A stretch of 64,000 nt of DNA, from assembly GCA_017302015.1 (NCBI GenBank), contig JAFLEE010000014.1:5097-69096 (forward strand), read 5' to 3'. Under the pieces are notes generated by a model, which saw nothing but the letters and a program-made list of their open reading frames with translations, searched no databases and was not told the DNA's origin. Position numbers and translations under genes: made by a program. The stretch is from Spirochaetota bacterium (lineage in GTDB: Bacteria; Spirochaetota; UBA12135; COTS27; JAFLEE01). Shown piece after piece: positions 53,582-58,300 of the stretch. Each line of letters begins with the position of its first letter. Position 1 is the first letter of the stretch.

Positions 53582-56500
53582 CTAAACGGCCGGCGGTGGG
53601 TCGCCCAAGGCGGCGAGGATCAGGGGGCGGGCCGCTGCCTTGAGGCGATCGCCCGCGCCGCGCAGTTCCGCGAGATAGGCGGGCAGATTTCGGATCCCTC
53701 CGGCATGGCAGGATTCTTCCACCCTCAGGGCCGCCTCGGCGGTTTCCGTCGCCCGCAGGTTCAGGGCCAAGCCGCGGAGGCCATGGGAGAGGCGGCGGGC
53801 CAGGGCCCAATCGCGGGCGCCGACCGCCGTTTCGAGTTCGCTCATACTCACCGGCAGCTGGGCGAGGAAGCTCCCCAGGATCTTCCGGGGCACCTCGGCC
53901 TGCTCTCCGAATTGGGCCGCGAGGGTCCCGTAGTCGAGGATGCGCAGCATCGCCGCGTCGGGGACGCTGGGCGGCTTGTCGCCGCGACCTAAGAGCGGCG
54001 AAGGGATTCCACGGGCGCGGGCGGCGAGGGAGACGAGGGCCTGGTCCCAGTCCACCGGCTTGGTGAGCACATCGTCCATCCCCGCGGCGAAGCAATGGGC
54101 CCGATCCTCGTCGAATGCGTAGGCGGTCATGCCCACCACCGGCATGCGGGCGAAGCGGGCGTCCGCGCGGATGCGCCGGGTGGCCTCGAGGCCGTCGAGG
54201 CGCGGCATCTGGACGTCCATGAGGCAGAGATCGAAGCGCGCGCCCCGCTCCAGGCGTTCCAGGGCCTCTTGGCCGTCGGAGGCCACGGTGACCTCCGCCC
54301 CCGCTTGGACCAGCATGTATTGGGCGAGTTCCTGGTTGGGCAGGTAATCCTCCACCACCAGGATCTTCAGGCCCCGGGAAGGCTTATCATCGGGCACCGC
54401 GGCCGGGGCGGACCGGGAAGAAATTCCTGCGGCGGCGAAGGGCAACTCGAACCAGAATTGGGAGCCGCGCTTCAATTGGCTGCGCACGCCGAGGGTCCCC
54501 CCGAGGAGTTTGACGAGTTCGCTGGCGATGCTGGTGCCCAGCCCCGTGCCCCCGAAACGCCGCGCGAGGTCGGCGTCGGCCTGTTCGAACGGTTTGAAGA
54601 GGGAACCGAGGCGCTCGGGGGGGATGCCCGGGCCCGTATCCTCCACCTCGAAACGCAGGCCGATGCCGGCGTCGGGGGCGGTCACGCGCCGCACGCGGAG
54701 CACGATCTCGCCCTTCTCGGTGAACTTCACGGCATTGCCGACGAGATTGACGAGGATCTGGCGGAGTTTCACCGGGTCGCCCAAGAGCGACGGGGGAAGA
54801 TCGGGGCCGAGTTCGAGGCGCAGGGGCACGCCCGTGGACCGGGAGGCCTGTTCGAACCCCTCGAGCACCCCGGTGAGCAGGGGCTCCAGGGCGAAGGGGA
54901 GCGAGGCCGTCTCCATCTTGCCGGCGGAGATCTTGGATAGGTCGAGCACCTGGTTGATGAGTTCGAGGAGGCTGCGGGACGCGGCGAGGATCTGCCCCCC
55001 GAATTGCTCGCGCTCCCCGGGCGCGGCGCCCTTGGCCAGGGCCTGGGCGTAGCCGAGGACCGCGTTGAGCGGGGTGCGGATCTCGTGGCTCATATTGGCG
55101 AGGAAGCGCCCCTTCGCCTCGTTGGCGGCCACCGCCGCCTCCCGGGCCGCCTCGAGGTCGCGGATCGCGCCCTGGAGTTCCCGGGTGCGCTCCTCCACCC
55201 GCGCTTCCAGCGCCTCGTTGGCGCGGCGGGTGGCTTCCTCCGCTTCCCGGCGCGCCGCCATGGAATTGAGGAGCACGTGGAACTCGGTGGTGAAGCGCTC
55301 GAGAAAATCCACGGCTTGGGCCGTGGGCCCCGCTCCCTCGCGGAACTCGACGGAGAAGAAGCCCAGCGGCGCGCCGCTCGGACGGTAGGGGATCAGGTAG
55401 GCCAACGGGGGCGGGCCGTTGACGGACCCGGGGCCCAGGTGCTCGCGGAGGAATTTTTCGCCGACCCGGACCACCCCGCCCGCCCAGACGGCCTCCAGCG
55501 GGGCGGCGGGAAACCGGTCTCCTCCGGGCGCGCCATCGGAATCGGCGAGGCAGACCACCGCGCCCCCGTCGAGATGGTAATAGCGGGAACGAGAGGCCGC
55601 CAGGGGCGCGGCCAAGCGCGGGGCCAAACGGATCGCCAAAGACCTGAAATCGTCGGACAGGTCCGCGACGGCGCGCCAACAATCGGCCCTCAGGCGGTGG
55701 AGCTCGTTCTCCTGGGCCAGATGGGCTTCGGCGATGGATTTCTCGCTGAACACCGTATCGAAATCCTGCTTCAGGAGCGCGACCGATTCGTAGAGCGGGC
55801 GCATGGGGTGCTCCTCCCCCACCGGGATGGCTTCGAGGTCCATCCCCACGAGTTCCCAATTGATGGAGCCCATGAACTGCAGGAGCGCCTGGATCTCTCC
55901 GATGGGGGGGATCGTCTCGACAGCCTCGAGGGGCGCCGGCGCCGCGGCGCCGCGGGCGCGGAAACGTTCGATGCGCCGAAGGGCATCGGGAAGGTCGCGG
56001 GCGGTCTCGAAGGGGGCCCGGATGGCGGCCCGGGAGAATACCGATAGGCGCCGAAGGATCCCCTTGAGGCCGTAGGCGACGGCGAAGGCGACGCCGAACT
56101 CCTGGTTCTGCTCGTTGATGGTCGAAAGGAAGTGCCGCACCGTACGGAAAGAAGCGCGGCGCACGCCTTCGTAATTGAAGATCCGGTAGGCGACGGGCGC
56201 CATGGGGCGAATCTCCATGAGCGCGCGGCGGTGGCAGGCGAAGATGCCGGGGAGGTCGGCCTCGCGCACTTCCCCCCGGCCCTCGAGGTAGAGGATGTCT
56301 TTCCCCAACCGAAGCATGCGCATCTCGTAATGGGGCGAGCGGTACTCCCATTCGGGGGACCGCTTGACCTCGAAGCCCGCGAAGCGGGAATCGGGGAACG
56401 CGAAGGCGCCCGTGAAGCGCGCCAATGCGGAGGATGCGTCCGCCGCGAACTCCACCCCCGCCCCCCATCGCCTCAGGCGCCCGCCGAGGAGGAAGCGCCG

Positions 56501-58300: not shown

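Follow-up and report, generated by a model that had tools for sequence, protein, structure and literature searches.

A soluble hybrid histidine kinase of a Spirochaetota bacterium with an N-terminal array of five predicted STAS-fold modules

Introduction

Unorthodox hybrid histidine kinases such as BarA, TorS, ArcB and EvgS are membrane proteins with periplasmic or PAS inputs and a C-terminal HisKA-HATPase_c-REC-Hpt phosphorelay cassette. The best-known STAS domains are partner-switch antagonists and appendages of transporters. The antagonists SpoIIAA, RsbV and RsbS (Pfam STAS, PF01740) are single-domain proteins, the SpoIIAA-like DUF3478 proteins (PF11964; PDB 2q3l and 2ook) are stand-alone proteins of ~125 amino acids (aa), and in the RsbR-type stressosome proteins and YtvA a globin or LOV sensor is followed by a single C-terminal STAS domain for output or assembly. 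Here we analyzed a 64,000-nucleotide stretch of DNA from a Spirochaetota bacterium (GenBank assembly GCA_017302015.1, contig JAFLEE010000014.1, positions 5,097 to 69,096), referred to as the window, that contains an open reading frame (ORF) for a hybrid histidine kinase of 1572 aa at 53582..58300 (minus strand). The product shares the C-terminal cassette of BarA, TorS, ArcB and EvgS; unlike these, it is predicted to be soluble and has an array of modules with a predicted STAS fold at its N-terminus. In contrast to the STAS domains of RsbR and YtvA, these modules are multiple and are located N-terminally, upstream of the kinase.

Results

Five homologous modules with a predicted STAS fold

The initial annotation had described the first ~900 residues of the product as about five divergent repeats of 150-200 aa with a STAS-like fold. 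A BLASTP self-comparison at E 100 was blind to such repeats (no off-diagonal matches), but Smith-Waterman alignments evaluated against 200 shuffles related repeat R1 to R2 (z value in Table 1) and R3, R4 and R5 to one another (z = 6.6-9.0); pairwise alignments of R1/R2 with R3-R5 were not significant in the same analysis. Profile building that began with the five repeats and was extended with homologues converged on a single model of 123 positions, which matched all five modules with the E values listed in Table 1. Judged by the alignments and this profile, the internal repeats are real and homologous. The number of five tandem repeats thus stood, whereas their size had to be corrected to ~120-135 aa and their extent to residues ~45-777. 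The sequence strings quoted in the annotation were all present and were located in modules 1, 2 and 5.

Structure prediction of module 1 from an alignment of 80 module instances gave a model with a predicted local distance difference test score (pLDDT) of 92.2, a predicted template modelling score (pTM) of 0.86, and the topology β1-β2-α1-β3-α2-β4-α3-β5-α4. A Foldseek search of the PDB with this model retrieved the SpoIIAA-like DUF3478 protein 2q3l, SpoIIAA, RsbV, RsbS, and the STAS domain of YchM. Residues 645-1060 were modelled separately with AlphaFold2 (AF2; pLDDT 83.6); here, module 5 adopted the same fold with an extra N-terminal strand (pLDDT mostly 89-97, ~80 in one stretch), and Foldseek aligned this region with SpoIIAA/RsbS at a template modelling (TM) score of 0.74. 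The predicted fold comprises a four- or five-stranded sheet and four helices in the order β1-β2-α1-β3-α2-β4-α3-(β5)-α4, superposable on SpoIIAA. On the basis of these models, the N-terminal region is predicted to be an array of five STAS/SpoIIAA-fold modules, in line with the fold proposed initially. An extended PAS/GAF array was rejected as the identity of this region because the fold search was unambiguous for STAS.

Structure prediction of module 1 and of residues 645-1060 thus yielded the expected fold, but the profile searches, also proposed as a check, did not: none of the five modules matched Pfam STAS (PF01740) or STAS_2 at E ≤ 10, the whole protein gave no such match at E ≤ 1, and Pfam searches with the single modules of the window protein identified nothing. 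NCBIfam holds no model for the module or for the coupler segment that follows it, and PDB sequence searches with the N-terminus or the repeat profile returned noise only. The modules differ from SpoIIAA, RsbV and RsbS in being arranged in tandem inside a kinase and in carrying the extra N-terminal strand. To the DUF3478 proteins they show 14-16% identity; these proteins lack the CPxTG motif, the coupler and the kinase fusion found in the family of the window protein.

The C-terminal phosphorelay cassette

Translation of the ORF starts with TTG; the NCBI product of 1559 aa (P0001), labelled 'response regulator' in a Spirochaetes metagenome-assembled genome (MAG), begins at another in-frame TTG, at 58261. 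Neither of the two start candidates (58261-58300) is preceded by a strong Shine-Dalgarno sequence, and an AT-rich stretch is located at 58310-58335.

A Pfam scan of the whole protein down to E ≤ 1 identified the four C-terminal domains with E values from 2.4e-27 to 1.8e-7 (Table 1) and gave no match in residues 1-1010 even at this threshold. The protein has the full set of an unorthodox hybrid histidine kinase, namely HisKA, HATPase_c, receiver and Hpt domains with an H-box, both G boxes (G1 and G2), a receiver Asp and an Hpt His; with its catalytic and phospho-acceptor motifs intact, it is predicted to be kinase-competent. NCBIfam models for TorS and BarA matched residues ~1015-1424 with 335 and 331 bits, respectively; the equivalog cut-offs of 676-890 bits are far higher. 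The maximum mean Kyte-Doolittle value over 19 residues was 1.25 in the whole protein, indicating the absence of a transmembrane helix and therefore a soluble protein. PAS and CHASE domains were not detected in the Pfam scans of the protein and its single modules. The initial annotation as a soluble hybrid kinase that ends in a HisKA/HATPase/REC/Hpt phosphorelay and lacks transmembrane helices, PAS and CHASE domains was therefore confirmed.

Table 1. Features of the hybrid histidine kinase, with positions in the window and the residues found at three conserved positions of the module profile
Feature	Residues	Window positions	Strand	Evidence and motifs	Residues at profile positions 53/61/65
N-terminal Cys-Pro motif CPVTGRP	25-31	58208..58228	-	family consensus CPVTGLPIxxKPEW	
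Module 1, subtype T1	45-164	57809..58168	-	profile E 3.5e-30	D/S/K
Module 2, subtype T2	211-334	57299..57670	-	profile E 3.3e-28; T2 101 bits; z = 11.8 vs module 1	D/N/R
Module 3, subtype T3	367-487	56840..57202	-	profile E 5.3e-16; T3 52.8 bits	D/S/M
Module 4, subtype T3, most degenerate copy	515-628	56417..56758	-	profile E 5.7e-9; T3 26.5 bits	D/A/R
Module 5, subtype T3, adjoins coupler	657-777	55970..56332	-	profile E 4.2e-20; T3 72.4 bits	N/S/V
Coupler 'LK'	793-880	55661..55924	-	helix 800-812, INWE loop (INWE at 813), 46-residue helix 834-879 (AF2)	
GAF-like α/β domain	~885-1000	55301..55648	-	AF2 pLDDT 55-80, very shallow alignment	
HisKA (DHp)	1062-1127	54920..55117	-	Pfam; phospho-acceptor His1072 in SHEIRTPLN (at 1071)	
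HATPase_c catalytic domain	1174-1289	54434..54781	-	Pfam; G1 box DTGPGI at 1221, G2 box GGTGLG at 1250	
Response_reg receiver	1313-1420	54041..54364	-	Pfam; LMD at 1360, inferred acceptor Asp1362	
Hpt	1474-1555	53636..53881	-	Pfam; SHGLRG at 1505, inferred phospho-histidine His1506	

The module defines a widespread family

An exhaustive HMMER search with the module profile identified 553 representative proteins (50%-identity clusters) at E ≤ 1e-3, 308 of them at E ≤ 1e-10; across hundreds of these clusters the phyla Desulfobacterota, Spirochaetota, Acidobacteriota, Fibrobacterota and Chlorobi were represented. A word-index homologue search had recovered the window protein alone with the N-terminal region, and nothing with the module alignment. 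The family, termed CPxTG-STAS-coupler, was defined in this analysis by three features: an N-terminal CPxTGxP motif, one or more modules that match the 123-position profile, and, after the last module, a coupler of the INWE/HPFxPVFDAIxLIK type. With CPVTGRP, five profile matches and a coupler containing INWE, the window protein is an expanded member of this widespread, uncharacterised cytoplasmic signalling family.

Module counts were obtained for the top 151 proteins, i.e., 150 listed homologues and P0001: 24 had one module, 90 two, 32 three, two four, and three five. Besides the window protein, P0002 (from a Fibrobacterota MAG) and P0003 have five modules; the five-module form is therefore the extreme of the family and not unique. 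The initial annotation had regarded the architecture as undescribed, and in the literature on DUF7793, on STAS domains with histidine kinases, and in a review of STAS domains, no description of it was found; the protein is, however, not a one-off but the largest form of a 553-cluster family that usually has one to three modules.

In 51 randomly chosen homologues the module was always N-terminal to variable outputs, with HATPase_c in 41, HisKA in 34, REC in 27, PAS in ~26, and Hpt in 12 proteins. Most family members lack a GAF domain, and many have no PAS domain between coupler and HisKA. Related loci were retrieved with a degenerate DNA pattern for the Cys-Pro motif, and all 36 loci obtained in this way encoded true family members. 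They derive from Desulfobacterales and Desulfobacula (many), Syntrophaceae, Spirochaetia, Acidobacteriota including Thermoanaerobaculales, Fibrobacterota, Methylomirabilota, and from one isolate, Chlorobium phaeovibrioides BrKhr17. In the Chlorobium protein (NZ_RXYK01000009.1; positions 2339-3701 of locus L016), a CPVTGLPI motif and one module are followed by a coupler-like segment, a coiled coil, and a probable GerE/LuxR helix-turn-helix domain (E 2.7e-4, just below the gathering score). It is a probable one-component version of the family in a cultured isolate.

The only Pfam family that recurred on the module was DUF7793 (PF25056), itself unannotated, which matched eight of the 80 module instances weakly; the literature search turned up no paper on DUF7793. 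In the 51 full-length homologues it was found three times at E ≤ 1e-5 (best E value 3.4e-8), and its match in P0009 coincided with the first module of that protein. On the five modules of the window protein, no DUF7793 match reached E ≤ 10 or the gathering threshold of 26 bits. By sequence, the family appears to be related to or to overlap DUF7793, with the window protein being no detectable member. DUF3478 (PF11964) gave one match on the modules, at E 0.1.

Module subtypes and the age of the five-module array

The modules of three-module proteins were sorted by position to build hidden Markov models T1 (first), T2 (second) and T3 (third), which define positional subtypes. In the canonical family input, a CPxTG motif and one or two T1/T2 modules precede a T3 module and the coupler, and typical members score as T1 or T2 followed by T3. 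The window protein, P0002 and P0003 all score T1-T2-T3-T3-T3, with module 5 as the best-conserved T3 copy of the window protein. When the three five-module proteins were compared, each module was most similar to its positional counterparts (e.g., scores of 269-303 for module 1, 228-357 for module 2, and 156-300 for module 3, as compared with 20-120 for other pairs), and module 3 of the window protein is the positional orthologue of module 3 in P0002 and P0003. The T3 triplication therefore predates the divergence of the three proteins, and the array is old and has been kept.

Two sister five-module loci differ from the window in gene organization. In L037 (1669-2061) and L038 (5616-6008; also in L039 and L040), a gene for a receiver-only protein of 130 aa shares 8 nt with the start of the kinase gene; the receiver-only genes of the two sister loci are 70% identical and have no counterpart in the window. 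A candidate for such a gene upstream of the window kinase, the ORF at 58281-58610 (minus strand), was rejected as a low-complexity translation, and tblastn found the internal REC domain only. In L038, a 917-aa protein with five STAS modules and coupler but no Pfam match (6001-8754) and a 649-aa HisKA-HATPase-REC-Hpt protein (8711-10660) are called separately with a 44-nt overlap. This split is identical in three samples (L038, L039, L040) and could be a true split gene or a recurrent frameshift.

Cys-Pro motif, coupler, and GAF-like domain

A Cys-Pro motif precedes the first module in nearly all homologues; Cys was found in 124 and Pro in 117 of 147 aligned rows, corresponding to ~96% and ~91%, respectively, of the 129 rows with a residue at the site. 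In the window protein, the motif lacks the PEW part of the consensus. The protein encoded by L019 (1757-4118, from a Spirochaetaceae MAG) carries the motif again before its second module (CPISGLII..PEW) and in degenerate form before its third (YPPTGSPI..PEW); the motif is therefore part of the repeating unit and is duplicated along with the module. The signature of haem-regulatory motifs is a Cys-Pro with a hydrophobic residue after it, and the nearly invariant Cys-Pro-(Val/Ile) could accordingly represent a haem-regulatory-motif-like element or a redox-active Cys whose state is relayed by the STAS modules. Besides its conservation and its duplication with the T1 module in L019, such a thiol, redox or haem sensor would fit the concentration of the family in anaerobes (Desulfobacterales, Syntrophaceae, Spirochaetia, Fibrobacterota, Thermoanaerobaculales, Chlorobium). 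All of this support comes from sequence motifs, however, and the one Cys is not accompanied by another conserved ligand; the degenerate YPPTG copy of L019 indicates that the segment may be mainly structural, and the missing PEW part in the window protein also speaks against such a sensor.

The coupler, a segment of ~80 residues with the family consensus LLxFxGxINWE...HPFxPVFDAIxLIKxDFD, is the most conserved segment of the family. Of 150 homologues, 141 have it behind the last module, and its Trp is present in 138 of 147 rows. In the AF2 model the coupler helix is continuous with the downstream domains, and a 66-residue helix runs from the GAF-like domain into the DHp domain. The GAF-like domain named in the initial annotation is plausible by fold resemblance, as Foldseek with residues 645-1060 retrieved the GAF domains 3ci6, 4g3v and 3ibj at a TM score of ~0.6, but these matches lie in a lower-confidence part of the model, and residues ~885-1000 gave no match to Pfam GAF.

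Conserved residues of the module

The positions conserved over 321 modules include Gly20 after strand 2 (100%), Ala119 in helix 4 (95%), and Ile13 (81%). Position 65 in helix 2 is Arg in 83% and Lys in 10% of the modules, the helix-2 N-cap at position 61 is Ser/Thr in 71%, and position 53 at the end of strand 3 is Asp in 69% and Asn in 19%. Asp53, Ser/Thr61 and Arg65 cluster at the strand-3/helix-2 junction, which in SpoIIAA is the face for phosphorylation and SpoIIAB binding. The closest solved structures found by Foldseek include the phosphorylatable antagonists SpoIIAA, RsbV and RsbS, and each STAS module of the window protein might by analogy be a substrate or partner for a Ser kinase of the RsbW/SpoIIAB type and for a PP2C phosphatase, with the histidine kinase integrating several phospho-switches. 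The frequent Ser/Thr at the helix-2 N-cap, present as Ser in three of the five window modules (1, 3, and 5), lies roughly at the site of SpoIIAA Ser58. Against such a role, modules 2 and 4 lack the Ser, the DSSG phospho-motif of SpoIIAA is absent from the modules, and Arg65, Gly20 and Ala119 are more conserved than the Ser. An hhalign comparison of the module profile with Bacillus subtilis SpoIIAA was weak but topologically consistent (E 0.052); in its register, which is uncertain, SpoIIAA Ser58 aligns with Gly59 of the family, whose Ser comes two residues later.

Genomic context

Thirty genes of the window were scanned against Pfam, and the 36 related loci, each of 8 kb, were inspected for recurrent neighbors. 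Among the 30 window genes scanned there was no RsbW/SpoIIAB-like kinase (HATPase_c_2), no PP2C/SpoIIE phosphatase, and no stand-alone STAS gene, so that the window protein also differs from SpoIIAA, RsbV and RsbS in having no partner kinase or phosphatase gene nearby. The other ORFs of the window did not match the module profile. A conserved partner gene beside family members was rejected, as the only recurrent cluster in the 36 loci consisted of generic PAS/histidine kinase proteins. The several partner-switch inputs suggested in the initial annotation thus found no support, neither in the window genes scanned and the related loci nor in the modules, which lack DSSG and retain the helix-2 Ser in only three of five copies.

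The kinase gene is flanked upstream by genes for a metallophosphoesterase and a metallo-β-lactamase-fold protein and downstream by a small outer membrane protein-like gene. At lower window coordinates, 47076-50261 (plus strand) and 50258-52516 (plus strand) contain a DUF1549/DUF1553 (PSCyt2/PSD1) gene paired with a DUF1501 gene and followed by a 752-aa protein without Pfam match. Planctomycetota and Verrucomicrobiota are the groups in which DUF1549/DUF1553 is typically paired with DUF1501, yet the contig carries the label Spirochaetes. The region 3219-41704 encodes at least eight AraC-family regulators (counting 41767-43080 just beyond) and the carbohydrate-active genes GH28, GH42-like, MGH1-like/trehalase, sulfatase, LVIVD β-propeller and a CBM9 protein, and has the appearance of a polysaccharide-utilisation region. 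At 6857-8074 (minus strand), in locally lower G+C, lies an intact transposase gene of the Mutator family (IS256-like; Pfam Transposase_mut, E 4.5e-107). ORFs of 277, 403, 810, 378 and 383 aa at 10759-15856, 17757-18893 and 20136-21284 have a gene-like codon bias and no Pfam match at E ≤ 1e-4.

Discussion

The domain architecture, fold, family and module subtypes presented here identify an unorthodox hybrid histidine kinase with five STAS-fold modules at its N-terminus. We consider it reasonably probable that the protein is a cytoplasmic kinase whose input consists of the Cys-Pro motif, the T1-T2-T3-T3-T3 STAS array, the coupler and the GAF-like domain, with the signal passing from the array via the coupler to the DHp domain. 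The direction of signal flow and the sensing role of the STAS modules are inferred from three observations: no N-terminal element other than the modules is conserved, the outputs behind them vary widely, and in many members nothing else lies between them and HisKA. The STAS modules would then be the sensing or partner-binding part, and a change in the last T3 module would be transmitted through the 46-residue coupler helix to the GAF-like domain and through the 66-residue helix to the DHp domain. The signal would set the autophosphorylation of His1072, from which the phosphoryl group would be passed to Asp1362 of the receiver, to His1506 of the HPt domain, and finally to a response regulator encoded elsewhere. 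The likeliest sensing surface, by analogy, is the patch of conserved Asp, Ser/Thr N-cap and Arg at the strand-3/helix-2 junction, which is a functional face in other STAS proteins.

Several points weigh against this assignment. Modules 3-5 have lost part of the Asp/Ser/Arg patch, and some copies may be structural rather than sensing. The coupling of the STAS modules to the coupler is deduced from adjacency and conservation, and it could be the GAF-like domain that senses the signal, leaving the STAS array to act as a scaffold. Among the 30 window genes scanned there is no stand-alone response regulator, i.e., no cognate regulator nearby, and we know of no ligand, partner or phenotype for any family member.

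With regard to the nature of the signal, a small molecule or anion bound at the conserved patch or in the helix-2/helix-3 cavity ranks first, followed by a redox or haem signal via the Cys-Pro motif, by a scaffold or in-cis inhibitor of the GHKL domain, and by partner switching, which has the least support. Binding of an anion or nucleotide at the helix-2 N-terminus has been reported for some STAS domains. A cavity for nonpolar ligands between helices 2 and 3 has been proposed for SpoIIAA-like DUF3478 proteins (2q3l; PMC2954212) and CRAL-TRIO domains. In the modules described here, the conserved Ser/Thr-x-x-Ala-Arg at the helix N-terminus would make a plausible anion site, and the position of the module as N-terminal input to many different outputs is as expected for a sensor of either kind of ligand. 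That the modules bind a nonpolar ligand in the helix-2/helix-3 cavity, or an anion or nucleotide at the helix-2 N-terminus, is nevertheless put forward only tentatively, given that identity to DUF3478 is as low as 14-16%.

For the motif-based reasons given above, a thiol, redox or haem sensor is considered doubtful. A similarly low probability is assigned to a non-sensing array that drives stressosome-like assembly, or that docks in cis on the GHKL domain as SpoIIAA does on SpoIIAB, with the GAF-like or receiver domain as the real input. The catalytic (CA) domain of histidine kinases shares the GHKL fold with SpoIIAB, modules 3 and 4 are degenerate at the conserved patch, and the GAF-like domain is placed between array and DHp. 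The composition of the family argues in the opposite direction, as in the many members lacking GAF and PAS domains between coupler and HisKA the STAS modules are the sole candidate input; moreover, a conserved surface patch and a strongly conserved coupler favor signalling over mere assembly. Partner switching appears the least probable of the four, with its candidate Ser missing from two modules and its partner genes from the window genes scanned.

More speculatively, and in our view improbably in this full form, the Cys-Pro motif, tandem STAS modules and INWE coupler could together constitute an unrecognised class of cytoplasmic sensors, possibly for thiol, haem or redox signals and mainly in anaerobes, that feeds kinases and at least one probable LuxR-type factor; the five-module form would then be a multi-input integrator with each copy kept under selection.

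The STAS fold as such and the C-terminal cassette, which is an ordinary one, are already known, and Pfam lists some members of the family under a DUF. The novelty lies in tandem STAS-fold modules being used as N-terminal kinase input with a dedicated Cys-Pro motif and coupler, for which no description was found in the literature. The signals of most bacterial histidine kinases are still unknown, and new cytoplasmic input domains are rarer than periplasmic ones. If two-component kinases indeed use STAS modules as a primary sensor that can be expanded in tandem, the fold would have a wider range of roles than is known so far, and what is now at best a Pfam DUF would gain a name and testable residues. 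The one-component homologue of Chlorobium phaeovibrioides, from a cultured isolate, would be a candidate for such experiments.

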